In this document: positions 4,230 through 39,880 of the stretch, piece after piece
Position numbering within the stretch: the stretch's first letter is position 1
Layout: every line of letters starts with the position of its first letter
From: Patescibacteria group bacterium
GTDB taxonomy: Bacteria; Patescibacteriota; Microgenomatia; Levybacterales; UBA12049
Direction of reading: 5' to 3'
Length of the DNA: 64,000 bases
Assembly (NCBI GenBank): GCA_035946335.1
Contig: DASYZL010000006.1
Coordinates: forward strand, 175,664-239,663
Notes under the pieces: model-generated
What the model was told of the DNA's origin: nothing
What the model saw: the letters and a program-made list of their open reading frames with translations, nothing else
The model's database searches: none
Translations under genes and position numbers: made by a program

Positions 4230-4246
4230 TGGTATTATTATACACC

Positions 4247-8303: not shown

Positions 8304-8355
8304 GTTTTTTAATATATCGAGTAGTTCTCGTTTCGTTTAAACAATTTGTTTTCTG

Positions 8356-8625: not shown

Positions 8626-8679
8626 ATAACTAATTCATTATAGCAGTTTTCTTTTTGTGACGCAATCGGATATTAATCG

Positions 8680-9630: not shown

Positions 9631-9638
9631 AAATTAAA

Positions 9639-25916: not shown

Positions 25917-26206
25917 TCCGCGATAGCTCAATGGTAGAGCAGGAAGCTGTAAAAGTGCAGCTTCCAGAAGTAATTCTGGATGAAACATGGGGTGAATTCA
26001 GGGAAGCCAATACGGTAATCCTGAGCCAAATTTGGTGAATGGTATAAGAGTAACCAAAAAGGTGCAGAGACTAGAAGTGAGGAACCAATCCAATACGCTT
26101 CACAGCGCCCCACATCCTAAAAAGGATGATGATATAGTCCATGCTTTTTGGAAACAAAAAGGTTTGTGTAACTTCAAGGTTCTAGGTTCGAATCCTAGTC
26201 GCGGAG
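25917..26206 (+). tRNA. tRNA-Asn(GUU) interrupted by a group I intron; exons 25917..25950 and 26169..26206
   Basis: The spliced product folds as a cloverleaf. The 7-bp acceptor stem is TCCGCGA/TCGCGGA with U1-A72 and a G73 discriminator, both typical of bacterial tRNA-Asn. The D arm is GCTC/GAGC, the T arm is CTAGG-TTCGAAT-CCTAG, and the anticodon loop is CU-GUU-AA. Confidence 0.8.
25951..26168 (+). ncRNA. Group I self-splicing intron (IC3-like) inserted between anticodon positions 35 and 36
   Basis: P1 forms between the exon end AGCUGU and the internal guide GCAGCU, with a U-G pair at the splice site. The R element (GGTGCAGAGACTAGAAG) and S element (GATGATATAGTCC) form P7. A Q-like GAGCCAAA is present, a P9 hairpin (CTTTTTGGAAACAAAAAG) precedes the 3' splice site, and the intron ends in omega-G. 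Confidence 0.8.
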
Positions 26207-27391
26207 CAAAAAATCTCTTATTATAACCGCATGATTCTCTTGTAATACTGAGAAAATCGGAGTATAGACAATTTTAACAATCTTCTTATCTTGCACAATT
26301 AGCTTCTCAAAGAAGAACCGTAGGTAATGGCGTTTAAGGAATTTGGGAGCTTGTAAATATGTAGTATGGATATTTCTGGTAAATGCTAAAACCTCCTCGA
26401 TTAAGTTTACGTCCATATTTGCGCTATTTTCTATCTCCTGAATAAGATTGTTTAAGTTGGTAATCTTATCATTAACTTCTGTGTGCTTGCGTTGGTAGGC
26501 TTCTCTGTCTATTGTGCCGTCAATAACAGCATCTTCAAGTTTATTTCTTTTGATTTCTAATACTGTTTTTTGGTTAATAATACCTTGCTTTTGTGCATCA
26601 ATGGTCCTTCTGTTTTCTGCTACGACATCCTTTGCTTTCTGAACAACTATGTCTATAAATTCTGGGGTAAACTGCATTTTCTCTATTTCTTTTTCAACCT
26701 GTTTTTCCAATGCGTCTGCTTCAACGTAGAGGGCAGGACAGCCGTTTCTATCTCTCTTTTGGCAGTGGTAGTAGTGGATAATGCCTTTTCTCTCAAGAGA
26801 GTTAATCTTGTGCTTATCTGCGGTATATCTTTGACCGCAGTTGGAACAATACATAAACCCTCGCAAAAGGTAGTCATGGGTTCTTTTCCTGACAAGGAAA
26901 TCCCTATGTTTCGCTAAAACATACTGGCAGGTATCGAACAAATCCTTTGTAATAATTGGTGCGTGTTTGCCAATTCTAGACTCTCCATGCCAACGTATTA
27001 TGCCGTAGTAAAAGGGATTTTTGAGAATATTATTTATCACGCTATGTCCAATTATCGTACCAGTTCTTGAGAGTATATTTTTATCAGAAAGCCAATCTTG
27101 CAGTTCGAGAATACTGTGATTGCCAGTAGAATAAATCTCAAACATTTGTTTTATAACTGGTGCTACGTACGGGTCTGGTTCGCATGTTTTCTTTTGGTCT
27201 TCCTCTCCGACACTTCGATAGCCGATATATAAGGGGGACGGTTGCCATCCCTCTCTAAACTTTTGCGCTAAAGCATCTCTTGTTCGTTGTCCGTTTACTT
27301 CGGACTCCCATTCAGCGATAGAAGCCATTAGATTGCCAATTAGTCCGTCAGAAACATCACCTTCCTGAACAGACAGTAGTTTAATTGCCAT
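26195..27391 (-). CDS. Large serine recombinase (integrase), C-terminal segment (recombinase domain, zinc ribbon, coiled coil); out of frame with its N-terminal segment
   Basis: The alpha-E helix region, a Cys cluster (CSNCGQRY...CQKRDRNGC) and a coiled coil are present. The stop codon overlaps the tRNA 3' end. Confidence 0.75.
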   Translation of the reverse strand: MAIKLLSVQEGDVSDGLIGNLMASIAEWESEVNGQRTRDALAQKFREGWQPSPLYIGYRSVGEEDQKKTCEPDPYVAPVIKQMFEIYSTGNHSILELQDWLSDKNILSRTGTIIGHSVINNILKNPFYYGIIRWHGESRIGKHAPIITKDLFDTCQYVLAKHRDFLVRKRTHDYLLRGFMYCSNCGQRYTADKHKINSLERKGIIHYYHCQKRDRNGCPALYVEADALEKQVEKEIEKMQFTPEFIDIVVQKAKDVVAENRRTIDAQKQGIINQKTVLEIKRNKLEDAVIDGTIDREAYQRKHTEVNDKITNLNNLIQEIENSANMDVNLIEEVLAFTRNIHTTYLQAPKFLKRHYLRFFFEKLIVQDKKIVKIVYTPIFSVLQENHAVIIRDFLLRD

Positions 27392-27686
27392 AATTTCTCA
27401 TCTCCTTTCGTATATTCGCAAAATCTCCAACATTCCTGAACAATCTATCTAATTTGTAAAAAATGAGTGCATCAACTGGGTCTTTCTTGAGAAGCGTGAA
27501 CATTTCCTGAAATGCAGGTCTATCAGTTGTTCTTGCGCTTTTTCCGTCATCAGAAAAAATTCTTTTGATTTCATAGCCGTGCATTTTCGCATAATCAACA
27601 CAAGCTCTTTTTTGGTTATCAATAGAGAATCCCTCTTTAGCCTGTTCTTCTGTGCTTACTCTTATATAAATGTAACAAGTTTTCAT
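27381..27686 (-). CDS. Large serine recombinase, N-terminal catalytic (resolvase) segment; a frameshift lies relative to the downstream segment
   Basis: YIRVSTEEQ contains the catalytic Ser, followed by DRLFRN. It overlaps the C-terminal ORF by 11 nt in a different frame. Confidence 0.7.
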   Translation of the reverse strand: MKTCYIYIRVSTEEQAKEGFSIDNQKRACVDYAKMHGYEIKRIFSDDGKSARTTDRPAFQEMFTLLKKDPVDALIFYKLDRLFRNVGDFANIRKEMRNYGN

Positions 27687-27910
27687 ATATTTTCTCCTAA
27701 ATTTTGAAAAGTAATTTTTTTGTATCTCATACTATACTTTCTAGCGATACATTCGCCAGCTTTATTAAGTCTCTCAAGCATTGGTTCAACACGTTTTTTC
27801 GCTTCTTCATACGTTATTGCCTTATGCCTCATGGCAAAATGTAATCCTCTTGCTTCGGCAAGAATTTCTGTTAATTCTTTATCAAGTTTTTTGTTATTAT
27901 CCAGCCTCAT
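27683..27910 (-). CDS. Hypothetical small protein (island ORFan)
   Basis: 75-aa ORF, translationally coupled to the integrase gene. Confidence 0.35.
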   Translation of the reverse strand: MRLDNNKKLDKELTEILAEARGLHFAMRHKAITYEEAKKRVEPMLERLNKAGECIARKYSMRYKKITFQNLGENI

Positions 27911-28033
27911 AATATTATTAGATAATATTATGGACTTTGGACTGCCGAATCAAGGCATTTTTCTACTTTTCTCTCTTAATCTTTTCATTTTTACCTCCTT
28001 ATGCTTCTGCAATCGAGAGGCAAAGTCAAAAGA

Positions 28034-28303
28034 CTATGATTCCAATTTTTGTAACTCTAGCTCAAATTTTTCACTCTCGACCCATTCGCATAGGATTTCC
28101 ATAGACCTGGAATGCAAAGTTGTTACAAGTTCATAAACCAAGCCAGCAAATTTTTTCTTACTTTCCATTGAATATTCTGTAATGTCATACTTTTCAAGTA
28201 TAGCTATTGCTAATGTTATGCTCTTGGTTGCTCTTTCCATTTCTTCCTCATCTATCATTTCTATTTGTTCTTTTTTATTAAGTCTCGATTTCATAATTTT
28301 CAC
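28034..28303 (-). CDS. Hypothetical small protein
   Basis: 89-aa ORF in the island. Confidence 0.3.
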   Translation of the reverse strand: MKIMKSRLNKKEQIEMIDEEEMERATKSITLAIAILEKYDITEYSMESKKKFAGLVYELVTTLHSRSMEILCEWVESEKFELELQKLES

Positions 28304-28380
28304 CTCCTGTCTTTTTCTTTTATTTTTTAACTTCTTATTGAAGCTAATCTGGGAGGATTAGCTTTATATAAAAAGATAAA

Positions 28381-28584
28381 CTAGTCATTATCAAAAGCAT
28401 ACGGTGCAATTCTGTTTTCATATTCTTCCTTTATTTGCTTATCCGTATAATTAAATTCTTCCCAACCTTTCCAACCAGTTCTTGCTATCTCCTCAATCGT
28501 TATATCGTCATTTTTGAACATCTCGACATCAGCTTCCACTAATGCGTCTATCATTTCATCTGTTGTAAGTTTCTTCTTTTTCAT
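28381..28584 (-). CDS. Hypothetical small acidic protein
   Basis: 67-aa ORF. Confidence 0.3.
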   Translation of the reverse strand: MKKKKLTTDEMIDALVEADVEMFKNDDITIEEIARTGWKGWEEFNYTDKQIKEEYENRIAPYAFDND

Positions 28585-28773
28585 ATATTTTCACCCCCTT
28601 TAGGCCCTTCAGATTTAATTTCATTATCATCAATTTTCTTTTGTTCTTTTTGGCTCCTGATGTGGGCAAAAACAATCTTCACCCAAAATTCAGCAATTCC
28701 GTCCAGAGATGTATCTATTGTTTGTAATTTTTCTTGTTGCTCCATAGTATTTATCCTTTCCGCAAAATATCCT

Positions 28774-29049
28774 TTATTTTTTGTTTACTTTCACGTAAAG
28801 AGCAAACAGTTTTCGTAGCAAGCCAGCATCTTTACTAAATTCCAGACGTGGTTTTCCTTTAGAGTTTGTGCGTATATACCCATGGGGCATAGAGTGGATA
28901 TACTCCCTTATCAATCTTGATTGGTCAAAGACAGTAAGTTTTTCTGTTTGGTTTTCGGTAGATTTTCGTATGTAAAGGGCGTATTGAGTTTTATTCATGG
29001 TTCTTGCCTCCTTTACTTGAACGGCTACTTTTGTTTTTAATTTCTCCAA
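28774..29049 (-). CDS. Hypothetical protein; N-terminus resembles a serine-recombinase catalytic N-terminus (possible remnant)
   Basis: The internal sequence MNKTQYALYIRKSTENQTE resembles the YxRVSTxxQ start of resolvases, but the ORF is only about 75-91 aa. Confidence 0.25.
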   Translation of the reverse strand: MEKLKTKVAVQVKEARTMNKTQYALYIRKSTENQTEKLTVFDQSRLIREYIHSMPHGYIRTNSKGKPRLEFSKDAGLLRKLFALYVKVNKK

Positions 29050-29284
29050 GAAGCATGTCTCTTTTTGAAAAGAGTTCTCTTGCAGGAGCGGAAGCGTTGT
29101 TGAGGTATTGGTGTCGCAATTCCTCGCACCTTTCAGGGTTCGAGAGAATGAAGGAAAAGTGATGAAAGTTATCTTCCCGTATGTCGATAAGCTTTATATC
29201 TTTTTGCGTCAGCAAAAAAGCACAAAGAGTTATAGATTCTAAAGTATATGTATTTATTTCCATATTGATTTCTATTGCCGTCAA
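28991..29284 (-). CDS. Hypothetical protein
   Basis: 97-aa ORF. Confidence 0.3.
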   Translation of the reverse strand: MTAIEINMEINTYTLESITLCAFLLTQKDIKLIDIREDNFHHFSFILSNPERCEELRHQYLNNASAPARELFSKRDMLLGEIKNKSSRSSKGGKNHE

Positions 29285-29368
29285 AAGTAAGACAAGCTAG
29301 TAAAAAGGTTATACAATAAATTGAAAAAACTTGCCGTTTAATTAAATGGGGGATTTTTTTTAATGTTT

Positions 29369-30277
29369 CTATGCGTCAGCTATAAGGAGGTCTTTTTTGA
29401 AATTGCTGACTATGGTTCTCACATCGGAATCCGAGAGTTCATATATTTCTTTATCCTTTCTTGTGCTAATAATTTCTACAACTTTATCTTCATGAGATAG
29501 AGATGGAAGTTCTGCGAAATAATCTTCGTTTTCCTTTCTAAAATTTTCCAGTACTTCAGGGTCAGGTGCATTACTTAAAATATTGGCAATTTGCCGAGCG
29601 TTATAGCCTAAAGCATCAAATAAAAACACCTCAACCTCTCTTGTAAATGTTTTAACATTTCTTACTCTATCAATGGGATAGTCATCCAAATATTTTTGGA
29701 TGCCTATAATAGTTTTTTCATTCTTTCTGTAAAATTCTTCAATTCCTGTTGGGGTAGTATCCTTATATATCTGAATATATGCGAAGATTTTGTTATCTTT
29801 TTTTGTTTGGTTTATTCTTCCTCCACCCTGAATTACGATTCGTGCTTTATGCTTAAACTCCTCTTTGGCGACTATTTCCCTTGAATTGATACTTTCTATA
29901 TCTATACATGAGAAGTACAAATAGTCTAGTAAAAACATTCCATAGCTGAGCGGGTCGAGGTCAAACTCAGCGGATAATTCAATTATTAACTTATGAGATG
30001 GTTCTTTCGGAACATCTGGGATTCTTGCGTCTACCCAGTCCTCCCATGTTCCATCTGCTCCTACGTCATCTCTTAATTTCCCGTACCAATCTTGAGGGAT
30101 TTTGAGTTGTTCCCTCAGTTCTTTTATTCTATTTCGGAATCTTGTGTTGAATAAAAGCGGCAAAAGAGCTACATAAAATTCCTGGTCGCTATATGTTATT
30201 TCAGGGCCTATAAACGGTACAATATATAACAAGTCAAGAATATTTTGTCTTAATTCCTTATCTATTTGCTTTTTCAT
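29369..30277 (-). CDS. Hypothetical protein (302 aa), island-encoded
   Basis: Long ORF with no recognisable motifs. Confidence 0.45.
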   Translation of the reverse strand: MKKQIDKELRQNILDLLYIVPFIGPEITYSDQEFYVALLPLLFNTRFRNRIKELREQLKIPQDWYGKLRDDVGADGTWEDWVDARIPDVPKEPSHKLIIELSAEFDLDPLSYGMFLLDYLYFSCIDIESINSREIVAKEEFKHKARIVIQGGGRINQTKKDNKIFAYIQIYKDTTPTGIEEFYRKNEKTIIGIQKYLDDYPIDRVRNVKTFTREVEVFLFDALGYNARQIANILSNAPDPEVLENFRKENEDYFAELPSLSHEDKVVEIISTRKDKEIYELSDSDVRTIVSNFKKDLLIADA

Positions 30278-30353
30278 TTTTTATTTCAATCTGAATCTCT
30301 ATTTATGGTTTGTTTGATTTTAGCACAACCATTATTATGAAGTAAGTTGAGCT

Positions 30354-30779
30354 ATGGCGACTCCGTATAGGAACAACCGCCAGAAACTCCAAGGTTTTAT
30401 GCTCCCATACATCAAAGCTCCACAGATTTTTGAACATCAAAGTTACTTTTTGATATATAATTTACTGGTGGGCTTTGTATTTATAACAATTTTGACTGCT
30501 ATAGTAACATTTACTTGGGTACTTTTAACAAAGAAACAATGGAGAAAAAAGAGTAACCATACAAACTTTAGGAATTATCATATTCATCATAGCGTAGTTG
30601 GTCTTTTGCTCATAGTGATAGGATTTTTCTTTGCACCTTTTTATGGGACAGTTATCTCTGCCGTTGGTTTTGGTCTGTTTGTTTCTCATGGTGTTGAGGA
30701 GCTGTATTTTAACCATGAAAAAATTACTAAAGCATTTTTTATTTTCATAACGAAAGGCAAAGAAAACGATAATATATGA
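30354..30779 (+). CDS. Membrane protein (3-4 TM)
   Basis: Hydrophobic 141-aa ORF overlapping the downstream methyltransferase start. Confidence 0.4.
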   Translation: MATPYRNNRQKLQGFMLPYIKAPQIFEHQSYFLIYNLLVGFVFITILTAIVTFTWVLLTKKQWRKKSNHTNFRNYHIHHSVVGLLLIVIGFFFAPFYGTVISAVGFGLFVSHGVEELYFNHEKITKAFFIFITKGKENDNI

Positions 30780-31417
30780 AAAATTATAAACACGCACCAG
30801 CGCTTATTAACTCATGGCTCACTTCTTTCTATGACCCCGTTATGAATATGTTTGGCGTCGGCACGCTGTTTCAGAAGAAAACATTAGATATTGTAACATT
30901 ACAAGAGGGACAAAAACTTCTCGATATTGGTTGTGGGACAGGAACGCTTGTAATGCTTGTTAAAACGAAACATCCGAAAGCGAAAGTAACAGGATTAGAC
31001 CCTGACCAGCATGTGCTAGCGATTGCAAAGAGAAAAGCAGAAAGAAGTAATCATGCGATTGATTTTATTCAAGCAGGAGCAGAGAAACTTCCATTTGCCT
31101 CAAGTTCATTTGATATTATTACCAGTTCATTAGCATTTCACCATTTACCAACAACAATAAAGAAACAAGCATTGGGAGAAATTTACAGAGTATTAAAACC
31201 AACAGGGCAGTTTCTTCTTGTAGATATTGGGAAACCAAAAAATTTGCTTTGGAAAATACTTCTTGCGATTGAAAGTATTGTTGAACCAAAGGAATATATC
31301 AAAGATAATCTTGAAGGAAAGCTCCCTGCATTTATGATAGAAGCGGGGTTTGCGCTAAAAGAAGTTCGTAAACCTTATTTGAGTATTCAGTTTCTAATGG
31401 GAACAAAAAAGAGTTAA
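30776..31417 (+). CDS. Class I SAM-dependent methyltransferase (UbiE/COQ5-like)
   Basis: Motif I LDIGCGTGTL, motif post-I VTGLD, and an acidic loop. Confidence 0.75.
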   Translation: MKNYKHAPALINSWLTSFYDPVMNMFGVGTLFQKKTLDIVTLQEGQKLLDIGCGTGTLVMLVKTKHPKAKVTGLDPDQHVLAIAKRKAERSNHAIDFIQAGAEKLPFASSSFDIITSSLAFHHLPTTIKKQALGEIYRVLKPTGQFLLVDIGKPKNLLWKILLAIESIVEPKEYIKDNLEGKLPAFMIEAGFALKEVRKPYLSIQFLMGTKKS

Positions 31418-31418
31418 T

Positions 31419-32066
31419 TTATATCGTAGGTTTTCTTATATTATGTTTTTTCATCCATAAGCATAAATTAGCTGGTGTTGTGCGATAACGATTTGAGATA
31501 AACGCTTGTGTCGCTCCGTTGATAAGCAACCCTTCGATTTCTAGTCTGAATTGGTCAAGTTTAGATTTTCCTACTTTGCCTCGTGGTCTTCCTAACACTG
31601 TTCCGTTTAATTTTTTTATTCTCAGTGCCTCAGTCGTCCGTTGTGAAATTAGAGAGCGTTCAATTTCAGAACAAAGGGCAAAAACTGTGCCGATGATTTT
31701 TGACTGCATTGTTCCATCGAGCTTCCAAGCACCCTTGACGCTGAATACGTTAATCTTCTTCCTTGAGCAGATAGAAAGAATTTCAACGATTTCAAGTAAA
31801 CTTCTGCCGAGCCGTGAAATTTCTGCGACAATCAAGTTGTCTCCTTCTTGTAAAACATCAATCAACTCAGATATTTTTCTTTTTTTCCAGCTTACTTTAC
31901 CGCTTATTTTTTCCTCAATAAAGGTCACGTTGCCAAGTTTTAATTCATTAGCAAGGGCTAGGATAGAGGATTTATCTTTCTCTAAATCCTGAGAAGCTTG
32001 ACTAACACGAAGGTAGGAAAGAGTCTGAGAAGTACGATTTTGCTGTTGATTAAGTGAAAACGTCAT
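31419..32066 (-). CDS. Small serine recombinase (resolvase/invertase family) with a C-terminal HTH
   Basis: YLRVSQASQD contains the catalytic Ser. The resolvase fold is followed by a C-terminal HTH. Confidence 0.7.
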   Translation of the reverse strand: MTFSLNQQQNRTSQTLSYLRVSQASQDLEKDKSSILALANELKLGNVTFIEEKISGKVSWKKRKISELIDVLQEGDNLIVAEISRLGRSLLEIVEILSICSRKKINVFSVKGAWKLDGTMQSKIIGTVFALCSEIERSLISQRTTEALRIKKLNGTVLGRPRGKVGKSKLDQFRLEIEGLLINGATQAFISNRYRTTPANLCLWMKKHNIRKPTI

Positions 32067-32189
32067 AAAGTGATTTTTATTATAATGTCTTTTATAGCCA
32101 ATGCAAGCCTTTTTACTTAATGAAACAGAAAAGAAAAATGACCGTTTTTTCTATATGGAGAAGCCATGCTTATTTGTTATACTACACGC

Positions 32190-32729
32190 ATGGCTGACGC
32201 ACGTTCGTATTTGGATACAAGTTTTTTATCGGCACTTATCAGAAGAAACATCCACGACCCATTAGAATTACAAGCGATTATCCGTATTCACTCATTTTGG
32301 GAGCAGGGTTTCATACAGTGTTATGTGAGTGAAGCAGTTAAGAAAGAATTAGAAAAAATACCAGCAAAGTACAAAACACAAAATGACAAATTAGCTGTGT
32401 TATATATGCTTTTGGAAAAAGCGGAGATGTTTCCTACACATCAGATGTTTACCTCTATGTTTGGTGGCGCACCTTTTGGGACAGTTCCTTTTGGTGGAGC
32501 TACGATAGCAAATGACCCGATTTTTCAACAACTATCTGCAATCTTTGATAGAGAAGATGCGGAGCATATTTTTCTTTGTATTAAAAATGGCATCCCATAC
32601 TTTTTGACATACGATGTCCGCACAATATTGAACCGAGCAAGGCAAAACAAAGCCCTTTTGAAAGGATTTGGTATTGAGATTCTTTCCCCGAGAGAATTTG
32701 AAGATACTGTTCTTTCAGGACAAAAATAG
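32190..32729 (+). CDS. PIN-domain protein (putative RNase/toxin)
   Basis: The acidic tetrad is placed as in PIN domains: YLDTSFL, SEAVKKE, DREDAEH and LTYDVRT. Confidence 0.5.
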   Translation: MADARSYLDTSFLSALIRRNIHDPLELQAIIRIHSFWEQGFIQCYVSEAVKKELEKIPAKYKTQNDKLAVLYMLLEKAEMFPTHQMFTSMFGGAPFGTVPFGGATIANDPIFQQLSAIFDREDAEHIFLCIKNGIPYFLTYDVRTILNRARQNKALLKGFGIEILSPREFEDTVLSGQK

Positions 32730-32739
32730 ATTAGTATGT

Positions 32740-33501: not shown

Positions 33502-33605
33502 GTATTTAGGCATTTTACTTTGGTGGAATGTGGTGTAGTTGAAGGCAGTTAGGGATAGTTCCTGAAGCTAAAAATAATGTCCATAGTTGTTCGGTTGCAC
33601 CAAAA

Positions 33606-33626
33606 TGGTGTAATTTGGATTACACC
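33606..33626. terminator. Bidirectional hairpin terminator between the convergent HNH and XRE genes
   Basis: Perfect 8-bp stem GGTGTAAT-ttgg-ATTACACC. Confidence 0.4.
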
Positions 33627-33642
33627 AGAATAATATTGATTA

Positions 33643-33870
33643 TCACTCAAGCAACTCAGACATTTTTACTCCTAAATATCGTGCAATTTTATCAAGCGTA
33701 GCTATTGATGGGTTTCGGACGCCTTGTTCGATAAAGCCAAGGTAAACAGGTGTTATCCCGATTTTCTCCGCCATTATTACTTGGGAAACATCCTTATCTT
33801 GTCTTAGCTGCTGTATTTTCTTTCCAACACTTTTTGGGATACGAGAATAATATTTTTTCCCTTTTGTCAT
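33643..33870 (-). CDS. XRE-family HTH transcriptional regulator
   Basis: QQLRQDKDVSQVIMAEKIGITPVYLGFIEQG HTH. Confidence 0.75.
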   Translation of the reverse strand: MTKGKKYYSRIPKSVGKKIQQLRQDKDVSQVIMAEKIGITPVYLGFIEQGVRNPSIATLDKIARYLGVKMSELLE

Positions 33871-33905
33871 GCTCGTATTATCGAACTTAAGCGTGACGAT
33901 GTATC

Positions 33906-33967
33906 CAAACTATTTGTTTGAGTTTGTGGTATAATTAGGCATAAGAATTACTCAAACTGTATGTTTG
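33906..33967. promoter_or_regulatory. Divergent promoter region with two CAAAC-N5-GTTTG operator palindromes flanking a TATAAT -10 box
   Basis: CAAACtatttGTTTG at 33906..33920 and CAAACtgtatGTTTG at 33953..33967. TATAAT lies at about 33930..33935. Confidence 0.5.
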
Positions 33968-33983
33968 AGTAATGGAATAACTT

Positions 33984-34283
33984 ATGAATCACACATTCAC
34001 AACAAAAACGTGGGGAGGAAATAAGCCTGTTTCTGATGTGATACTCATTATTGTTTTTATTTTAAGCGTAATACTTATGATAAGTATTATTGGAGCGCCA
34101 ATAGGAGTAATTCTGCTCTTTTTTCCCTTATCGGAGTATATGGTAAATATGAGAACGATTTGTCCTTCTTGTAAGAAAAGGGTTTCTGTCTTTAGAAGCG
34201 CTAAAGCGTTTTCTTGTTATAACTGTCAAAGAGTAATGGTCAAGAAAAATAATCAGTGGGTGATAATGCCTGAAGACAAATGA
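33984..34283 (+). CDS. Small membrane protein with a zinc-ribbon (CxxC...CxxC)
   Basis: TM segment followed by CPSCKK...CYNCQ. Confidence 0.45.
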   Translation: MNHTFTTKTWGGNKPVSDVILIIVFILSVILMISIIGAPIGVILLFFPLSEYMVNMRTICPSCKKRVSVFRSAKAFSCYNCQRVMVKKNNQWVIMPEDK

Positions 34284-34311
34284 GAGGGAATTACCAGTAT
34301 TTACGAATAGT

Positions 34312-35484
34312 CTAATTCAAGAAATTATTTCCTTTTCCTAAATTACATTTTTCGCAAAGCGTCTGCAAGTTTTCAAATATTGTTCTTCCGCCTTTTGAAA
34401 ATGGTACTTTATGGTCAATGTGTAGTCGGCATTGAGAATCTGTTGCTGGACTTGCTCCGCATTTCACACACTTGAAGTTATCTCTACTTAAAATTTTGTA
34501 CCGTAAACCGAGACCTACTTCTCTTTTTTCAACAATTAAAGTATTTGCTGTTTGTTTTATTATTTCTACAGTTTTTGTTGTTTTGGATTTAATGTCAGTG
34601 GGTTTTTCATGTTCTATAATTTCTTCAAATTCTTTTTCTTCTTGGTTCATTCTCACCACAAATGCCTCAAGTGCTTTACGCCAACTACCAAAATGTCCTT
34701 TATAAGTATTTGCTTTAATCTTTGATGGCTGAATGTCCATCTCTCCATACTTTGGTTGTCTTCCATAGCGTGTCCAAACAGTTAATAAATTCTCAAAATA
34801 TTCTTCGTCGGAATATGCCCGATTATATTTTTCAGAGATTTTTAATCCTGCTTTTTCCATAGCAGTAGCCCATGTACCAAATCGACGAGTTGCAACTCCC
34901 ACACTCATAACATTAGAGTAATGTCTTACATCTTCGTGGCTTACTGATTCCGTATTGAGCAACTTGGCAATTCTTTTTAGCTCATCAAGTACGTCTTGAT
35001 TTGTTAATGATTTTGCTTTTGGCTTACGCATGTTCTCTGTAATGATTGTTCCAGAATATTTATGACCAACACCTGCTTTTTCTAACGCTTGCTGCCATCC
35101 ACCAAAACGACTAATAAAAGTACCTGAGCTAATTTCACTATGTTGGTCAAAGTCCTTTCTTCTTATGACTTTCACATCAAGTGCTTCTGCAACTCTTTTT
35201 AATTCCTTGAGTACTTCTTGGTCTGTTAGCTGTTGCGCCTTTTGCAAGCGCATTTTATCTGTAATTTCTGTACCAATGTATTTATGTCCCAATCCAGCAG
35301 TAGTGAGTGCATTTTCCCAACTGCCAAATCTAAGTTTTACTCCGTCAGAACTCATTTTTGCGTGCTTGTTGTAATCAGTTTGAGTTAGCTTTTCCTTACC
35401 GACTAATACATCAACACGTTTTATTTCTGCAATAACATCTTCATCAGGGCAATTCCTCGGTAAATTGCTTAATTCAAATTTCAT
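34312..35484 (-). CDS. HNH endonuclease with four N-terminal homing-endonuclease-associated (HNH) repeats
   Basis: There are four repeats of about 60 aa (FGSWENALTTAGLGHKY / FGGWQQALEKAGVGHKY / FGTWATAMEKAGL / FGSWRKALEAF). The C-terminal core is CVKCG...HIDHKVPFSKGG...CEKCN. Confidence 0.75.
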   Translation of the reverse strand: MKFELSNLPRNCPDEDVIAEIKRVDVLVGKEKLTQTDYNKHAKMSSDGVKLRFGSWENALTTAGLGHKYIGTEITDKMRLQKAQQLTDQEVLKELKRVAEALDVKVIRRKDFDQHSEISSGTFISRFGGWQQALEKAGVGHKYSGTIITENMRKPKAKSLTNQDVLDELKRIAKLLNTESVSHEDVRHYSNVMSVGVATRRFGTWATAMEKAGLKISEKYNRAYSDEEYFENLLTVWTRYGRQPKYGEMDIQPSKIKANTYKGHFGSWRKALEAFVVRMNQEEKEFEEIIEHEKPTDIKSKTTKTVEIIKQTANTLIVEKREVGLGLRYKILSRDNFKCVKCGASPATDSQCRLHIDHKVPFSKGGRTIFENLQTLCEKCNLGKGNNFLN

Positions 35485-35561
35485 AGCTATTTTTCACTTC
35501 CTACTATTATATCATTAGCTTTTCAAGGCTAGAAAAGGATAAATAGTAATGTCGGAAGTGT

Positions 35562-36359
35562 TTATTTTCTAAGAAGGTTAATCGAGGGTTTTCCTAACAT
35601 TGGAGTTAATTCACTAAAAGAACTGTCTAATGTTGTTACTGTAAGATGCTTCGGACAATCAGTAGCAATAACAACGTCTCCGATAGCTTTATTTATTGGA
35701 TATTTATTTGCGTTTTTCACATCTTTTTCAATTTCTACTAATTTTGCATATATCTTATTTATCACTTTTGATTTATCAAAGACGTCTTTATTTGAGAGTA
35801 ATTTTTTTAATTCTTCTATGTGTGCCTTCCAAAAAACATCTAATGGTATTGATTTTCGGCTATTGTAAGCATCAACAAACGGCTCGTAATCATCTTTACT
35901 TCTTAATTTGAATCTGACTATCTCATCTCCTGCAAAATCTCCCACCATGCTTAGTAAATCAGTATCAAAGTTATTAACTAAATTAAAAATTACTGCCTCT
36001 ATTTGCCTTAAATATTTTGCGGTATCTTGGGTAGGGATGGATTTGTTCACACTTGCCATTATTGCCTGTAAAATATGAATATTCTTTAATTCTCTTTTCC
36101 CGTACTTTTTAGACCACCAAGCCAAAGCAAGAGAAGGACTATCAAGAAGTTTCACACGATAATAAAATTCTACCATGTTTCTTATAAAGCCTGTCTTAAA
36201 TTCATAGAGGACAAAATGAGAGGAATATAAGACGCTATTTTGCGGTAACAATCTCAGGATACTCCCATCCTTATCAGGCACAAATTTGCTTATTTGAATG
36301 GATGTTTCTAGGAGTAATCGTGTGCTTTTATCAGTTTTCTTCTTTTTGTTTTTTGCCAT
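35562..36359 (-). CDS. Hypothetical protein (265 aa), third gene of a three-gene operon
   Basis: Overlaps the upstream gene by 29 nt. No recognisable motif. Confidence 0.45.
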   Translation of the reverse strand: MAKNKKKKTDKSTRLLLETSIQISKFVPDKDGSILRLLPQNSVLYSSHFVLYEFKTGFIRNMVEFYYRVKLLDSPSLALAWWSKKYGKRELKNIHILQAIMASVNKSIPTQDTAKYLRQIEAVIFNLVNNFDTDLLSMVGDFAGDEIVRFKLRSKDDYEPFVDAYNSRKSIPLDVFWKAHIEELKKLLSNKDVFDKSKVINKIYAKLVEIEKDVKNANKYPINKAIGDVVIATDCPKHLTVTTLDSSFSELTPMLGKPSINLLRK

Positions 36360-36912
36360 GATTATTAGTGCCTTTCAACAAATACATTTTCTTCCTATAC
36401 AGTTGCTTTGAGAACATTGATAGACCATCCCAATTTACTTCACCCTCATTAAACCTCTTTAACTCTGTTTGGAAATATTTAATGTCTTTTTTATCCATTG
36501 TTTCCCAGTTATTATTCTCAAATAGTAATTCGAGCATGGATAATAAAATCCTTGTCTCTGATTTTTGGGTTAAATAATCAGCGTTTTCTTGTAGTAAGTC
36601 TTTGATATTACTGATATGTGCCAATGCGTCTTCTGTCTCCAAATTTTCCCAGGCAGAAAGTTCGTCATTTATCTTTTTTATTAAGGCATAGGTATTGTAG
36701 GAGATGTAATTACTAGAGTAATTTGTTCTGTAATATATGTTATTGTCTCCGTTTTCGCCAATCGAATGTATCGCAGGGTTTTGTGAAGAAATTTTTGTCA
36801 TTTCGTCAACATCCTTCTCAGGTGCTTTAGGCAAATATTGAGAATTGTCCTTAAAGTATTCCTCTAAGTTTACTGCTGTTTGTTGAAAAGTATATGAAGA
36901 TGCTATGCTCAT
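36331..36912 (-). CDS. Hypothetical protein (193 aa), second gene of a three-gene operon
   Basis: Overlaps the upstream gene by 4 nt (ATGA coupling). Confidence 0.45.
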   Translation of the reverse strand: MSIASSYTFQQTAVNLEEYFKDNSQYLPKAPEKDVDEMTKISSQNPAIHSIGENGDNNIYYRTNYSSNYISYNTYALIKKINDELSAWENLETEDALAHISNIKDLLQENADYLTQKSETRILLSMLELLFENNNWETMDKKDIKYFQTELKRFNEGEVNWDGLSMFSKQLYRKKMYLLKGTNNHGKKQKEEN

Positions 36913-37616
36913 AATGTTTGAATATAACCAAGATAATCTTTTGTTACTCGTAAATTTTCTTTAATTGCTTTGTCTAATTTTTCTAATGTGTTTTCGGCAG
37001 TGAGTCCACCCTCAATAAATATTGACACATCAATAAACAGATTACTGTCTTTAATATCTGTTTTATTATCTGGATAACTGCTATTAAAAGCCTTGATACC
37101 TTGGTCTTTCTTTACTGGCCCTATTTGCACATGATTAAGAAAACCATTTTTTGAGCCATCCAATACAAAAACAGAATCTCTTGGTGTATCTGCTGATATA
37201 TTTTTTACATCTTCATTTTGTGCGTAGAATTTTTTATATATTAATTCTACAAGTTCATTAAATTCAAAACTTGCTTCAAGAACTTGAGTGTGTCTCACTT
37301 CAAGTCTTCGGATTTGATTAACGCCAAGTTCTTTTGTGCTTTTGGTAAATATCTTGCTAATATAGTCATATAGTTCTTTAGTATCGTTCTTTCCTTCGTT
37401 CAAATAGGTAATAGTATCGAAAGTAATTTGTAAGATTTTCTTTTCGGAGGGAGAGTATAATGCAATATCTTCGTGTTTTTGTGCCGCCCATTCTTCAAAC
37501 TTATCTTCAACACCTGCGGCAAGAGAAGCGGTGCTATCAAATGTTTTAATTGTAGGACGGAATTTCACTTGTCCTACGATTCGATGTAGTTTTTCCGTTA
37601 AAAAGGTTTTAGCCAT
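36909..37616 (-). CDS. Hypothetical protein (235 aa), first gene of a three-gene operon
   Basis: Preceded by a perfect TATAAT -10 box. Confidence 0.45.
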   Translation of the reverse strand: MAKTFLTEKLHRIVGQVKFRPTIKTFDSTASLAAGVEDKFEEWAAQKHEDIALYSPSEKKILQITFDTITYLNEGKNDTKELYDYISKIFTKSTKELGVNQIRRLEVRHTQVLEASFEFNELVELIYKKFYAQNEDVKNISADTPRDSVFVLDGSKNGFLNHVQIGPVKKDQGIKAFNSSYPDNKTDIKDSNLFIDVSIFIEGGLTAENTLEKLDKAIKENLRVTKDYLGYIQTL

Positions 37617-37699
37617 ATCTATCTCAATCTAGGTCGCTATTATACCCCAATCAGCTTCAAAAGTAAAAAATACAATGATGCTCTACATATAATCTATCA

Positions 37700-38175
37700 T
37701 AATTTGTAAAAAACAAGATAGTAAGGTTTAATTATTTTTCTCCGACCTGCCGTACAGCTCCTAGCGCTTTATTTAGCGTTCGTTTCTGCTGAACTGATAT
37801 AAAGAGATAGTTCTTGATTTTTCTACTGTCCTGAGCTAAATGGCTGTTTTTATCTCAAAAGTATAACCGTTAGACTTTCTTCGCAAGAAGGTTATAGAAA
37901 ATCCTCATATAATTTCCAATGTAGCAATATTAACTTACCAGCCTCAAATTTACGGTTGATAGGTATGTCCACCTCTGCACCATAGTCCCTAACCTACACT
38001 CCTAGCCTCCTCTCTACGATACATATAAGAGATATTTTTTGGCAGATGCTTGGCTATCTTCCCTGTATGTATCGTAATATAGGCATGAAGCAGTGAATTA
38101 GAGGCTAGGGAGGTCATACATACCAGCCGTTCTTTTGTGCCTGAAATTTTATTTTAGTTACATTGTCAAAGAACA
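37700..38175. other. ORF-free structured region of about 480 bp (candidate ncRNA or replication origin)
   Basis: Nested long-range inverted repeats CCTAGCCTCC...GGAGGCTAGG and CGATACATA...TATGTATCG, plus a GNRA-capped hairpin TATAACC...CTTCgcaaGAAG...GGTTATA. Confidence 0.4.
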
Positions 38176-39543
38176 TTATTCATTATCCTGTGCTTCAAGG
38201 CAAGTCGGGATACCAAGTTCATCAATCGTTTGCTGTGCGGTTGAAATAATCATGTTCTTCCAGTACTGCTTTGACTCTTTTTGTGCAAACTGTACAGAGA
38301 AGCCGTCATGTTGCCATAGAACTATTTTGAAGGTACGCTTGCTTTTGTTCTGAATGGCGAGGTCAATCACGTCTGCCAGCAGTAGCATTTCCATAGACTG
38401 GGCGAGTTGGGCTAAAATGCTTCTGTGCGAGAAATCCTTGAGAGACAAGAATCTTCCGTAGCAATCAGTTGCACCGCCATTACCAGACATTTTGCTGAAT
38501 TGTTCAGTACGAGCCTTCCACATGAAATTGATAATCGGGTGGGAAATAAAGCGGTTAAAAGAATTATCACCAATCGGGGAGAGGATTTCTTTAATCTTTT
38601 TTTGTCCTGCTCCGTACATCATAGCATACAGACTTCTTTTGAATATTTCTTTTGTTTTGTCGTTTAGTTCAATCCCAAAAGTTGTAAATAAATCTTTCCA
38701 AATAGAATTGCCTTCTTTGAGATAGTGTTCTACCTCTGGAATAGTCCACAATTTAGAAGCGATTGCCAACTGGCATGATTTCAAATCAAATTCTGTCCAG
38801 CCTTTAGTTAGGGCGTGGCGTATATCCCTCTGCAAATAACAAATATTTTCGCTGAATGGATATATCCTTACTGATTTTTTTACAGGAGCGTAAAGAGGCT
38901 TGTATTCGTCTTGAATGGCTCTAAGCAAATCGAGTTGATTGTCGGCATCCTCTTGTTGGAGTGCGACTGCTTTTGCCTTTGGCATATTGACCATCATTTC
39001 TTGAAAAGTGCGGACTGGGAGGTTGTTCATATACGCAATAATCTCTTTTGCGCTCTGAACACCCGCATTACTCATTTGCTTCATCGCTTCCTTGTAATTC
39101 AAGTCTCGGAGCTGTTGCTGTTTATACTGAGTAAATGGTTCTCCATCTCTCAAATATACTCTGCCTGTATTTTCCCATAGGCCCTGTCGTTCATTGGCTA
39201 TTGCCTCAAGAACTTCTGCATCCCAACGGCATGTTTTAACGACCCTGCATCTGCCTTCGATATAAGAATAATCCGACCACTCGAAATGATGTACGTTACG
39301 GGAAAACTCAATAAGAAAATCAATCGAGCGATAGTTTTTGTTCTCAATCATGTAATATTTTCCTTCGCATTGTGCGATTAACTCCCAAGGAATTTTTACA
39401 TACCCTGTTTCCCACTCACGAAAACCGAATATAAGATGTCCGATAAAATTCCAGTACGCAGGGTTATTCCCCAGCGTAGGAAAATTTCGTTTGAGTATGT
39501 CCCGAAACATAGGCGAGACCGTCCTATTGGTTATTATCATCAT
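38176..39543 (-). CDS. Family A (T7-like) DNA polymerase-like protein, polymerase domain only; motif A E to Q, motif C HDE to HDG
   Basis: Motif A EFDLKSCQLAIASKL (T7: DASGLELRCLAHF). Motif B KRSLYAMMYGAGQKKI (T7: KTFIYGFLYGAGDEKI). Motif C VLWQHDGFSV (T7: AWVHDEIQV). No exonuclease domain. Start taken at MMIITN. Confidence 0.5.
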   Translation of the reverse strand: MMIITNRTVSPMFRDILKRNFPTLGNNPAYWNFIGHLIFGFREWETGYVKIPWELIAQCEGKYYMIENKNYRSIDFLIEFSRNVHHFEWSDYSYIEGRCRVVKTCRWDAEVLEAIANERQGLWENTGRVYLRDGEPFTQYKQQQLRDLNYKEAMKQMSNAGVQSAKEIIAYMNNLPVRTFQEMMVNMPKAKAVALQQEDADNQLDLLRAIQDEYKPLYAPVKKSVRIYPFSENICYLQRDIRHALTKGWTEFDLKSCQLAIASKLWTIPEVEHYLKEGNSIWKDLFTTFGIELNDKTKEIFKRSLYAMMYGAGQKKIKEILSPIGDNSFNRFISHPIINFMWKARTEQFSKMSGNGGATDCYGRFLSLKDFSHRSILAQLAQSMEMLLLADVIDLAIQNKSKRTFKIVLWQHDGFSVQFAQKESKQYWKNMIISTAQQTIDELGIPTCLEAQDNE

Positions 39544-39880
39544 GGCACTTCTGGAAAAATGAAGGTGGCAGTGCCATGACACGCAGAACACTAACGCACG
39601 TATAAAAAACCTTTGGGTTTTTCGGTAGTCTCGATTTCTATGTGGATTTAGTAGTTTCTATTTTTATTTCGATTTGCTACACTGCCAACATGACTGCTGG
39701 ATGGTTAATTTGCAATTTTTTAATCTCAAGCCATCGTTGCCTGAGTTCGCCAATGTACCGTAAATCCTGAAATGCCTGAATGATTGAGGTAAAATCTATA
39801 GTTAGAGTGAGCCAAGGCTGGGGGAGCAAATTAGTCCTGTAGTTTTATTCTAATTTTGTTTACTTCAAATATCCTCTTTT

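Follow-up and report, generated by a model that had tools for sequence, protein, structure and literature searches.

In the 64,000-nucleotide stretch of DNA analysed here (the window), which derives from an uncultured CPR bacterium (Levybacteria), a mobile element of 13,620 bp (∼26211–39830) lies in the 3′ end of a tRNA-Asn gene. The features of the locus are as follows.

25917–26206, plus strand: tRNA-Asn(GUU) gene, the integration target (attB, B arm); exon 1 at 25917–25950, exon 2 at 26169–26206
25951–26168: group I intron of 218 nt in the tRNA-Asn gene (Rfam RF00028, 107 bits)
26195–27391, minus strand: C-terminal ORF of a large serine recombinase (LSR), with Recombinase domain, zinc ribbon and coiled coil
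26203–26210: attL core GGAGCAAA, consisting of the last 3 nt of the acceptor stem and the discriminator G (the last 4 nt of tRNA-Asn), then CAAA
26215–26228: core-adjacent, attP-derived arm CTCTTATTATAACC (minus strand GGTTATAATAAGAG, encoding V-I-I-R)
27381–27686, minus strand: N-terminal catalytic ORF of the LSR (YIRVSTEEQ; Pfam PF00239, Resolvase, 4.9e-26)
27683–27910, minus strand: ORF of 75 aa, its stop overlapping the start codon of the recombinase (27683–27686); phrog_10302, 6e-7
28034–30277, minus strand: ORFans of 89, 67, 91, 97 and 302 aa
28774–29049, minus strand: ORF with 'YALYIRKSTENQ', resembling what is left of the N-terminus of another serine recombinase
30354–31417, plus strand: membrane protein (141 aa) and class I SAM methyltransferase (213 aa; 30776–31417)
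31419–32066, minus strand: small serine recombinase of the resolvase/invertase type, 215 aa (full PF00239 domain, 4.9e-27)
32166–33501, plus strand: PIN-like (187 aa, 32166–32729) and HNH_5-like (277 aa, 32668–33501) ORFs with overlapping ends
33643–33870, minus strand: XRE-family regulator (HTH_3, 9.6e-15)
33984–34283, plus strand: Zn-ribbon membrane protein, divergent to the XRE regulator
34312–35484, minus strand: HNH endonuclease with four homing-endonuclease-associated 'HNH_repeat' units (PF18780, 1.8e-49; PF01844, 1.2e-10)
35562–37616, minus strand: operon of three co-oriented ORFs (235, 193 and 265 aa)
37889–38175, minus strand: conserved non-coding region with a long hairpin, downstream of the polymerase gene
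38176–39540, minus strand: compact family-A-like DNA polymerase, 454 aa; the ORF reaches a GTG at 39591
39677–39829, minus strand: apparent split-off 3′ end of the recombinase gene (the tail, LLPQPWLTLTIDFTSIIQAFQDLRYIGELRQRWLEIKKLQINHPAVMLAV-stop), last 48 aa (39829–39680), adjoining attR
39794–39807: second attP-derived arm ATCTATAGTTAGAG (minus strand CTCTAACTATAGAT)
39823–39830: attR core GGAGCAAA, an 8-mer identical to the attL copy
39881–40192: OmdA/YdeI gene in the right host flank (OmdA Pfam, 4.5e-15)

ARAGORN called no tRNA in the unspliced window because the tRNA-Asn gene is split by the 218-nt group I intron. The joined exons were recognised as tRNA-Asn(GTT) and share 97–100% identity with intronless tRNA-Asn genes of relatives. 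As claimed in the original prediction, the stop codon of the large serine recombinase overlaps the end of the tRNA: its TAG (26195–26197) falls within the T-stem, giving an overlap of 12 nt, and the integrated ORF terminates as ...VIIRDFLL-RD-stop inside the antisense tRNA. The attL core, read on the minus strand, supplies the recombinase codons TTG CTC C (Leu-Leu). The C-terminal ORF matches Pfam PF07508 (Recombinase, 5.8e-15) and PF13408 (Zn_ribbon_recom, 8.2e-12), and is separated from the catalytic ORF by a 1-nt frameshift, a single extra A near 27386; removing one A restores a recombinase ORF of 496 aa. Owing to this frameshift the window copy is probably immobile, a grounded and decaying island, unless the extra base is an assembly error. 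The adjoining 75-aa ORF, possibly an accessory or directionality factor, is the sole other island gene kept beside the closest recombinase relative, in locus L082 (48% identity). The split tRNA, the frameshift, the truncation of the integrase with its tail at attR and the mosaic interior were all absent from the original prediction.

Domain searches upheld most of the gene content proposed earlier for the interior, including the ORFans, the methyltransferase (class I), the small resolvase and the repeat-bearing HNH endonuclease. The ORFans matched nothing in Pfam, PHROG or NCBIfam except for a phrog_95 integrase match (5.3e-5) in the 91-aa ORF. The methyltransferase matches Methyltransf_25/11 and UbiE (1e-23 to 1e-26) and PADLOC mad2 (2.4e-21); it belongs to the class I SAM/UbiE-like enzymes, and its identity as a DNA methyltransferase is not clear. 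Both members of the proposed PIN/HNH pair found matches, but weak ones below the curated Pfam cut-offs (PIN_3, 4.5e-4; HNH_5, 8.2e-5). Of the supposed XRE regulators one stands, its neighbour being the Zn-ribbon membrane protein. The three-gene operon, also foreseen, is preceded by a promoter-like site at 37667–37639 (match 10/12), and its products match nothing in Pfam, PHROGs, PADLOC or NCBIfam. Inside, the element is mosaic: it includes the apparent N-terminal remnant of another recombinase (28774–29049), and its polymerase module differs in GC content.

The polymerase belongs to a family of 25 homologues collected by word search, in which D252 and the K/Y/G and QHDG motifs are invariant. 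Its profile aligned motifs A and B with those of Taq Pol I in the PDB (E = 0.01). The AF2 model has a pLDDT of 92.5, and its top Foldseek matches are all Klenow, KlenTaq or Bst (E = 4e-9, probability 1.0, TM-score ∼0.45). These results bear out the PolA-like assignment made earlier, and the predicted model provides structural confirmation of a family-A-like polymerase. The palm and fingers fold is shared with Pol I Klenow/KlenTaq and Pol theta/nu, and the motif A aspartate, the motif B K..Y..G and the motif C HD of family A are kept. Unlike family A polymerases, the protein has only 454 residues and no Pfam DNA_pol_A match; its N-terminal 220 residues are, as far as tested, unrelated to the 3′-5′ exonuclease domain. 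The family is rare and restricted to mobile genetic elements, its only annotated relatives sitting on plasmids. The structured non-coding region anticipated downstream was recovered as a conserved hairpin (MFE −79.8 kcal/mol, z = −2.7), which is kept in L085 with its arms more conserved than its apical loop. It matches no Rfam family and is possibly an origin of replication or a non-coding RNA.

The original prediction of an integrated element of ∼13.6 kb at the tRNA-Asn 3′ end was borne out by a core at both ends and by homology breakpoints, the identical 8-mers emerging from the attL/attR core search it had proposed. It had left the right boundary undefined and noted only a short match to the tRNA 3′ flank near 39820. 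That match is the att core, and the boundary can now be placed at 39823–39830, with the host flank restarting at 39831. At the right core, homology to two unrelated contigs, L085 and L083, breaks off sharply inside the 8-mer; for L085 the nucleotide homology (80.5%) begins abruptly at 39822–39826.

The element is also more AT-rich than either flank, as had been claimed. Its GC content is 35.9%, against 41.2% on the left and 38.4% on the right, and it is the GC minimum among the 13.6-kb stretches of the window (Mann–Whitney, 1-kb bins, p = 2e-5). Tetranucleotide deviation is maximal across 26–38 kb. Within the element, GC steps at 38.2 kb from 35.2% (26.2–38.2 kb) to a host-like 40.8% in the polymerase/tail module. 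The region at 44–47 kb, outside the element, is GC-poor too.

Gene order was compared with 80 related Levybacteria/Microgenomates loci, each comprising rpoD plus 10 kb. The order dnaG-rpoD-tRNA-Asn is conserved across them, and none has island or right-flank genes after tRNA-Asn, save for recombinases of the same family; the island's gene order is conserved in none of the 80. Ten related loci have an LSR directly after tRNA-Asn, and ∼10 more have tails downstream of it. In relatives the site recurrently hosts recombinase elements, remnants and recombinase-less cassette arrays. The LSR ORFs of the window, L009, L069 and L082 enter the antisense tRNA by 12–133 nt, with stops at arbitrary points. 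The arm at 26215–26228 is kept beside the core in these four and in L075, L004, L005 and L100. From the sequence, the expected attB junction is ...TCGCGGAGCAAATTAGTCCTGTAG... and the expected attP junction ...GGCTGGGGGAGCAAAAAATCTCTTATT...; the search for an empty tRNA-Asn site and an excised circle, as suggested earlier, found neither, the metagenome scan giving chance matches only. Exact-protein look-ups of the flank proteins gave no matches.

When the two element ends were joined at the core, an in-frame LSR of 542 aa resulted, with the 48 tail codons free of stops and the whole colinear end to end with the intact 554-aa recombinase of L083, whose C-terminal residues match window positions 39835–39713 at 83% amino-acid identity; the tail ORF itself is 87% identical to the L083 C-terminus. 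In the reconstructed attP the two arms form an imperfect inverted repeat (10/14), 27 nt apart and ∼55 bp end to end, centred in a CTCCCCC run. As the last 48 residues are encoded beside attR and the junction is in frame, attP appears to lie within the integrase ORF, and integration appears to have cut the last 48 codons off the element's own serine-integrase gene and left them at the far end. The tail is 83–89% conserved, against 23–29% identity for the LSR bodies, a gap that a simple C-terminal extension does not explain; its substitutions relative to L083 are mostly synonymous, as read from the aligned DNA. L085 has an intact LSR and, 285 bp further on, a polymerase homologue of 86% identity. 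This adjacency of recombinase and polymerase is as expected of a circularised element.

We consider it likely that the locus holds a 13.6-kb integrative, plasmid-like (non-viral, non-conjugative) element, inserted by its LSR at the very 3′ end of tRNA-Asn with the LSR gene split at attP. This reading builds on the domain content, the paired cores and their homology breakpoints, the in-frame reconstruction and the recurrent architecture in relatives. In the free circle the LSR gene would read through attP, whose core, encoding Leu-Leu-Pro on the coding strand, would mimic the acceptor end of tRNA-Asn between the two 14-bp arms. Crossover, presumably inside the core, would keep the tRNA intact and bring the LSR body beside it, the ORF then ending after two tRNA-antisense codons (RD-stop replacing the conserved tail). 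The last 48 codons, the PolA-like gene and the conserved hairpin would be displaced by 13.6 kb, to attR. The integration-competent enzyme would then be the full-length protein alone, as expressed from the circular form, and the PolA-like gene and hairpin may serve replication of the excised form.

The island could instead be a composite, assembled as insertions and deletions followed one another at a tRNA-Asn hotspot, in which the recombinase module (26.2–27.9 kb), the AT-rich cargo (28–38 kb) and the polymerase/tail module (38.2–39.8 kb) have separate histories and the cores stem from different events. The second recombinase remnant, the small resolvase and the GC step fit such a history, and so do the relatives: L085 has only the polymerase module in common with the window, L082 only the LSR and the 75-aa ORF, and L004 carries tandem cassettes without a recombinase at tRNA-Asn. 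There is also a weak likeness to a decayed att arm right of attR (TTAGAATAAAA versus TTATAATAAGA). However, no internal tail, core-plus-arm or tRNA fragment is present within 26.3–39.6 kb, and the LSR body at the left end shares its reading frame with the matching tail at the right end. Module shuffling is expected anyway and leaves the present att-bounded unit unaffected. We regard a composite origin of the island as rather unlikely.

It is less probable still that the tail is a small gene in its own right (∼50 aa, starting from an NTG in the core) beside att and that the recombinase natively ends near the core, its fusions being read-through artefacts; the boundaries would be unchanged and the integrase unsplit. 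An exhaustive search found the tail in 169 protein clusters, with orphan tails in ∼150. Among the best 150 of these matches, ∼140 are ORFs of 35–100 aa and none is a full-length LSR (≥500 aa); L083 is the only complete LSR–tail fusion among the sequences compared. The first codon is TTG, ATG or GTG in the window, L083, L004, L028, L005 and L075, intact tail ORFs persist in L004 with no recombinase nearby, and a 2-nt indel puts the L085 tail out of frame with its LSR. Against this, the small ORFs have N-termini of differing length that show no relationship to one another before L-P-x-P, the point, corresponding to the core, at which shared homology begins in an alignment of 22 orphan tails. At least seven proteins (P0132, with Zn_ribbon_recom, P0128, P0167, P0139, P0058, P0111 and P0090) have, like L083, an LSR C-terminal domain contiguous and in frame with the tail, and the stop-free window reconstruction is colinear with L083.

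A prophage, or a CPR-phage satellite, is very unlikely: tRNA integration by a serine integrase, the XRE regulator, HNH endonuclease, polymerase and many ORFans would suit one, but Pfam and PHROGs searches of the element matched no capsid, portal, terminase, tail or lysis genes (nor a relaxase), the polymerase, recombinase tail and att pattern have no relatives in IMG/VR or GenBank phages, 13.6 kb is small, and the polymerase's annotated relatives are plasmid-borne. Ordinary chromosomal DNA with a coincidental composition dip and 8-mer can hardly be credited; GGAGCAAA alone is not statistically rare (3 found versus 2.5 expected), a second GC-poor stretch exists and the empty site was not found, but the breakpoints at the core, the split in-frame ORF, the recurrence at relatives' tRNA-Asn and the lack of synteny speak against it.

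The favoured element, with its split integrase gene, shares with LSR elements of the phiC31, Bxb1, A118, TP901-1 and SCCmec types the order of Resolvase, Recombinase and zinc-ribbon/coiled-coil regions, an integrase at the element edge, an attP of ∼50–55 bp with imperfect inverted arms and a short identical core (8 bp here) in place of long direct repeats, which serine integrases, as the original prediction correctly stated, do not need. The usual targets of serine integrases are protein-coding or intergenic sites (Hudson et al.), whereas the target here is a tRNA 3′ end; also unlike phiC31-type systems, the host is a CPR bacterium and the element is not a phage. The SSV1-type 'suicidal' integrases of archaeal viruses and plasmids likewise have attP in the integrase gene, a tRNA target and an ORF partitioned on integration (PMC8371274). 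Those are tyrosine recombinases, described as exclusively archaeal and split roughly into N- and C-terminal parts, whereas the window enzyme is a bacterial serine recombinase that loses only its last 48 residues.

By description, the tycheposons and cryptic integrative elements of Prochlorococcus resemble the window element in being small, lying beside tRNA genes and combining a site-specific integrase with replication genes (polymerases, primases) and variable cargo, and their tandem arrays or islands at tRNA hotspots recall the relatives' loci. They are defined in marine cyanobacteria and mostly use tyrosine recombinases, with an LSR in 27/937, and the available part of that account describes no split integrase for them (10.1101/2020.12.28.424599). 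Islander-type tRNA-linked islands similarly have an integrase adjoining an intact tRNA, a composition anomaly and variable cargo, but rely on tyrosine integrases and a tRNA-fragment direct repeat of tens of nucleotides; the repeat here comprises 4 tRNA and 4 flanking nucleotides. The tail beside its right-hand copy is annotated in the source MAG as a 50-aa hypothetical protein, VGT05_02635.

The tRNA-Asn target is interrupted by an intron, because of which ARAGORN called no tRNA in the whole window; the gene was settled with Rfam, which places a group I intron at 25941–26161 (RF00028, 107 bits), and by reading the sequence by hand. The spliced exons form a tRNA-Asn(GTT) with 97–100% identity to the intronless tRNA-Asn genes of relatives. 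An intron at the identical position is present in 11 of the related loci compared with the window (L004, L006, L007, L020, L027, L046, L056, L057, L068, L069 and L082), and tRNA-Asn is intronless in about 35 others. Group I introns in CPR tRNAs have been mentioned previously (PMC8172020). The predicted overlap of the recombinase stop codon with the tRNA end was confirmed: the TAG at 26195–26197 falls in the T-stem, 12 nt into the tRNA. The tRNA and the recombinase-related ORFs are arranged as follows.

25917–26206, tRNA-Asn(GUU) by sequence reading, with a 218-nt intron at 25951–26168 after anticodon position 35
26195–27391, minus strand, C-terminal ORF of the large serine recombinase (LSR): Recombinase PF07508, 5.8e-15; Zn_ribbon_recom PF13408, 8.2e-12
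27381–27686, minus strand, catalytic ORF of the LSR: Ser-nucleophile resolvase domain, PF00239, 4.9e-26; motif YIRVSTEEQ
28774–29049, minus strand, 91-aa ORF containing YALYIRKSTENQ: integrase phrog_95, 5e-5

The Resolvase ORF is separate from, and overlaps with, the Recombinase/zinc-ribbon ORF. The LSR is not one uninterrupted ORF: it contains a 1-nt insertion near 27386, and its putative last 48 codons (the tail) lie at 39829–39680. Deletion of one A at the frameshift junction ...AAT TAT GGC AAT TAA... yields ...NYGIKLLSVQEG... and restores a 496-aa protein, indicating that the recombinase is frameshifted in this assembly. Judged from its motif and profile match, the 91-aa ORF looks like the N-terminal remnant of a second serine recombinase in the element.

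Matching of 24-, 16- and 14-mers (3 mismatches at most), blastn-short with the attL region as query and a repeat search detected no significant long repeat of the tRNA 3' end in the window. The right boundary was instead derived from homologues of the polymerase-like gene (38176–39540, minus strand). L085, a 5.3-kb contig, contains an intact 512-aa LSR followed after 285 bp by a same-strand polymerase homologue (86% identical), which is the order expected of the window element if circularised; the LSR of L085 differs from that of the window, though the recombinase-polymerase adjacency matches the prediction. Nucleotide homology between the two (80.5%) extends from 37889 to 39822 and then stops abruptly; base by base, the break falls inside GGAG|CAAA at 39823–39830. 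An identical 8-mer is located at 26203–26210, where its GGAG is the tRNA end. This core is not rare alone (3 found in the window versus 2.5 expected), and the chance of one copy at the tRNA end and one within ~4 nt of an independently set breakpoint is estimated at roughly 2e-4. The two core copies therefore delimit the element as 26211–39830, that is, 13,620 bp with one core copy counted, the attL core being 26203–26210 and the attR core 39823–39830. The original prediction of an integrated element in the tRNA-Asn 3' end is thereby sharpened to an LSR element with attL and attR cores; the right boundary, which had been called undefined, is now placed, and the short match noticed near 39820 is the att core at the L085 breakpoint.

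The element was also expected to be more AT-rich than its flanks, and its GC content agrees with this: 35.9%, compared with 41.2% to the left and 38.4% to the right. No other 13.6-kb stretch of the window is as low in GC (1-kb bins, p = 2e-5), and the tetranucleotide signal deviates most across 26–38 kb. The last 1.6 kb of the element, containing the polymerase module, has a host-like GC content of 40.8%, and 44–47 kb is GC-poor too, so that composition supports the element and could not set its boundaries alone. A search for an empty site or a circle junction found none; no relative had flanks close enough to compare. A single degenerate attB/attP/attL/attR pattern gave 0 matches in viral contigs, and the 6 that it gave in JGI metagenomes proved unrelated when compared by blastn and tblastn. 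Neither OmdA nor the 471-aa polymerase ORF had an exact match at the protein level, probably owing to start-codon choice, and a promoter/terminator scan near the right end showed no excess over the shuffle expectation. The 45 nt directly right of attR bear a weak likeness to a decayed att arm (TTAGAATAAAA). A 222-aa plus-strand ORF (40507–41175), flanked by OmdA and a DoxX-like membrane protein, has a TTG start and no family match and may be non-coding or a decayed gene.

In a tblastn search with other LSRs, residues 503–543 of the intact 554-aa LSR of L083 matched window positions 39835–39713 with 83% identity. The minus-strand junction was reconstructed by joining the LSR from 27686 to 26211, with the frameshift repaired, to the core and the sequence from 39822 downwards. 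The result is a 542-aa ORF, in frame and free of stops, whose product can be aligned over its full length with the L083 LSR, at 29% identity overall and with the last 40 residues nearly identical from the core-encoded Leu-Pro onward. Nucleotide differences between the window and L083 tails, read by eye from the aligned DNA, are mostly synonymous, which argues that the tail is a translated peptide under purifying selection. The integrated-state ORF ends in ...DFLL-RD-stop, encoded by the antisense of the tRNA. The closest tRNA-Asn LSRs (L009, L069 and L082) enter the tRNA by 33, 12 and 133 nt, respectively, with stops at arbitrary points, as should be seen for an ORF interrupted by recombination. 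On this reconstruction, attP would lie within the integrase ORF and integration would partition the gene. The copy in the window is probably immobile, both because it is frameshifted and because its tail is apart from the recombinase body.

In the reconstructed attP, a 27-nt spacer with the core separates a conserved arm GGTTATAATAAGAG from an imperfectly inverted one, CTCTAACTATAGAT (10/14); the symmetry centre lies in the CTCCCCC run that is the antisense of the tRNA acceptor end. The reconstructed junctions are as follows.

attB junction, ggttcgaatcctagtcgcGGAGCAAAttagtcctgtagttttattc
attP junction, gagtgagccaaggctgggGGAGCAAAaaatctcttattataaccgc

With an attP of about 50 bp, imperfect inverted arms and an 8-bp core at both ends, the site has the form of a serine-integrase att site, and the element resembles serine-integrase elements in domain content and att-site style; its LSR may be able to catalyse attP × attB recombination. 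The first arm is found beside the core in at least 8 loci, including L100, in which no recombinase is left. At L085 (2085–2105), the core has a C-run of CCC instead of CCCCC, which puts the tail out of frame with the LSR; the short run may be genuine variation, a phase-variable tract or a mistake of assembly.

If the tail is the recombinase C-terminus, fused forms are expected to exist. A word-indexed tail search found only ORFs of 46–90 aa, among them the 50-aa VGT05_02635 of the source MAG; homology among the small ORFs begins at L-P-x-P, and their upstream parts are unrelated and variable in length. An exhaustive HMM search of 1.84 billion representatives identified 169 clusters carrying the tail. 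The best 150 of these are nearly all 35–100 aa and none is 500 aa or longer, which counts against the split-gene model and is the main reason for caution. Alternatively, the tail could be a small gene in its own right, with its NTG start codon in the core. This we regard as unlikely: in P0132 (323 aa), a tail-carrying protein, a recombinase zinc ribbon and coiled coil run straight into the tail, and a typical LSR C-terminal region is contiguous with the tail in six further proteins (P0128, P0167, P0139, P0058, P0111 and P0090), so fused proteins do exist. The excess of orphan tails also fits with integrated copies dominating metagenome assemblies. Reading the tail as the recombinase C-terminus does not explain why tails are 83–89% conserved whereas LSR bodies are only 23–29% identical. 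The contexts of three orphan tails (L097–L100) are island edges, and no second complete example was found in them. A tail profile found no relatives in IMG/VR.

The polymerase ORF is identical to VGT05_02630, encoded on a 239.8-kb contig of a Patescibacteria MAG, and belongs to a rare family, with 25 homologues in a word search that are always in mobile-element contexts; their neighbourhoods feature XRE, FtsK-gamma and runs of ORFans, with LSRs nearby in L083, L084, L085 and L092. D252, K297/K301/Y305/G310 and D412 are invariant in the family and resemble family-A motifs A, B and C. In the PDB, the family profile matched Taq Pol I, Pol nu and Pol theta and nothing else, marginally (E = 0.01) and with motifs A and B aligned. 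The AlphaFold model (pLDDT 92.5) retrieved exclusively family-A enzymes among the top 50 Foldseek matches (E = 4e-9, TM about 0.45). Pfam DNA_pol_A (PF00476) did not match the window protein at the gathering threshold; a precomputed PF00476 match exists for 1 of the 25 homologues. The invariant motifs together with the profile and Foldseek matches support the PolA-like assignment, with the protein as a remote, compact relative of family A. Distant homologues are carried by a Deinococcus megaplasmid (NC_019789.1; 28.5% identity over 98% of the query, with an HTH gene before it) and by an 11-kb Polaromonas plasmid (NZ_MG869621.1), the latter annotated as 'Clp protease N-terminal domain-containing protein'. 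Since these relatives are on plasmids, and the Polaromonas plasmid has its own RepA, we only infer that the polymerase may be the element's replicase.

The 290 nt downstream of the polymerase (37889–38175) are conserved with L085, the arms more so than the loop, and fold into a hairpin some 230 nt long (z = -2.7), in which one base-pair change (C-G to T-A) looks compensatory. Even with a permissive threshold, Rfam gave no credible match there.

The predicted gene inventory of the element holds, except that one XRE regulator is present rather than several and that PIN and the second HNH are only weakly assigned. The methyltransferase belongs to the class I SAM/UbiE-like enzymes. The three-gene operon (35562–37616) and five smaller ORFs matched nothing in any library searched, and PHROGs, PADLOC and NCBIfam returned nothing for the operon, the 302-aa ORF or the PIN/HNH pair. 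Neither Pfam nor PHROGs matched capsid, portal, terminase or tail genes, and relaxase and T4SS families were missing from the Pfam matches. The polymerase and tail profiles and the att pattern had no relatives in IMG/VR, nor did the polymerase have any among GenBank phages. A prophage and an ICE/IME were both rejected, as their hallmark genes are absent from these matches. The element is best described as small, integrative and plasmid-like, with mosaic cargo.

The rpoD of the window shares 94% identity with its counterpart in a Candidatus Levyibacteriota MAG, and all 80 recovered loci are from Levybacteria/Microgenomates (CPR). The dnaG-rpoD order is conserved across them, in most cases with tRNA-Asn after rpoD. 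No island gene or right-flank gene of the window recurs in the 80 loci, save for LSRs, a partial OmdA match (L013) and weak XRE matches (3 loci). Since no such genes other than LSRs are shared, the gene order is not that of a conserved core, and the island reading survives this comparison. A minus-strand LSR directly follows tRNA-Asn in ten loci (L009, L020, L030, L035, L057, L066, L068, L069, L077 and L082). Minus-strand tails, some with stop codons, lie 0.1–6 kb downstream of tRNA-Asn in L004 (twice), L005, L018, L027, L040, L055, L073 and L075, the last of which looks like a 1.2-kb mini-element. Elements have thus landed at tRNA-Asn repeatedly.

L004 lacks a recombinase body and contains three cargo modules in a row, all of which end in an intact tail ORF after an arm remnant and the core. 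Such a pattern is expected from repeated tRNA-proximal integration with recombinase loss, or from cassettes mobilised in trans. The cargo at 2900–9900 of this locus encodes HAD/PRTase; then ArsR, ferredoxin reductase, FMN reductase, DUF488 and an HhH glycosylase; then CsoR and a cupredoxin. In the first two modules, the intact tail ORF measures 48–56 aa and has an att-arm remnant, in an integron-like layout. At L083 (4100–8640), a riboflavin operon (ribD, ribBA, ribH, ribE) is flanked on one side by an intact LSR-tail and on the other by a second, partial tail that lies upstream of the polymerase homologue, so the riboflavin genes may be mobile cargo. A second LSR group, 23–28% identical to that of the window, is located ~90–130 nt after tRNA-Asn in L020, L030, L035, L057, L066, L068 and L077, and after tRNA-Ser in L036. 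Its stop is ~100 nt from the tRNA, with a conserved hairpin and a GGTTCGAA-like motif between in most loci, and it may represent a different att architecture at the same hotspot.

SSV-type 'suicidal' integrases are characterised by an att site within their own gene; they are tyrosine recombinases described as exclusively archaeal (PMC8371274). The window element would resemble them in having attP inside the integrase ORF and a partitioned gene; it differs in that its enzyme is a serine recombinase from a CPR bacterium. In the tycheposon preprint, 27 of 937 tRNA-flanking Prochlorococcus elements have an LSR, and replication genes are present too (10.1101/2020.12.28.424599); an LSR at a tRNA is thus uncommon but not unique. 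The literature searched contained no description of a serine integrase with an ORF spanning attP, and the putative attP-within-ORF architecture is noteworthy together with the widespread conserved tail. We tentatively propose, as a possible but still doubtful reading, a serine-integrase family with attP in its own coding sequence, mimicking the tRNA-Asn acceptor end. The exchange of its highly conserved 48-aa C-terminal module for a few junk residues would be a directionality or 'suicide' switch analogous to SSV, and the same att sites would bound recombinase-less cassettes mobilised in trans, giving integron-like arrays at CPR tRNA-Asn genes.

Serine integrases are prized for genome engineering as simple and directional enzymes. 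If the proposal is true, a C-terminus rewritten by integration would be a new mode of directionality control and the enzyme a new tRNA-specific landing-pad integrase; an integrase split by its own attP would not be limited to archaeal tyrosine recombinases. For CPR/Patescibacteria, tRNA-Asn downstream of dnaG-rpoD as a recurrent hotspot, combined with the FQDLRYIGELRQRWxEIKKLQ tail as a sequence tag, would allow island boundaries to be mapped in fragmented MAGs. The hotspot arrays also hint at how reduced genomes gain cargo, with metal resistance, riboflavin and defence genes in related arrays.

Contigs end at or inside tRNA-Asn in many relatives (L001, L006, L025, L042, L056 and L061) and in a same-strain Logan contig that ends at window position 26195, which suggests that assembly broke off at a variable hotspot or at shared tRNA k-mers. 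Population heterogeneity was rejected as the cause of the Logan contig end; the break is not at the core and falls where species begin to differ in their tRNA-Asn alleles. In L029 (13785–13960) and L055 (18910–19100), the 3' half of tRNA-Asn is duplicated ~100 nt past the complete gene, which looks like the classical tRNA-fragment repeat of a different, perhaps tyrosine-type, integration event.
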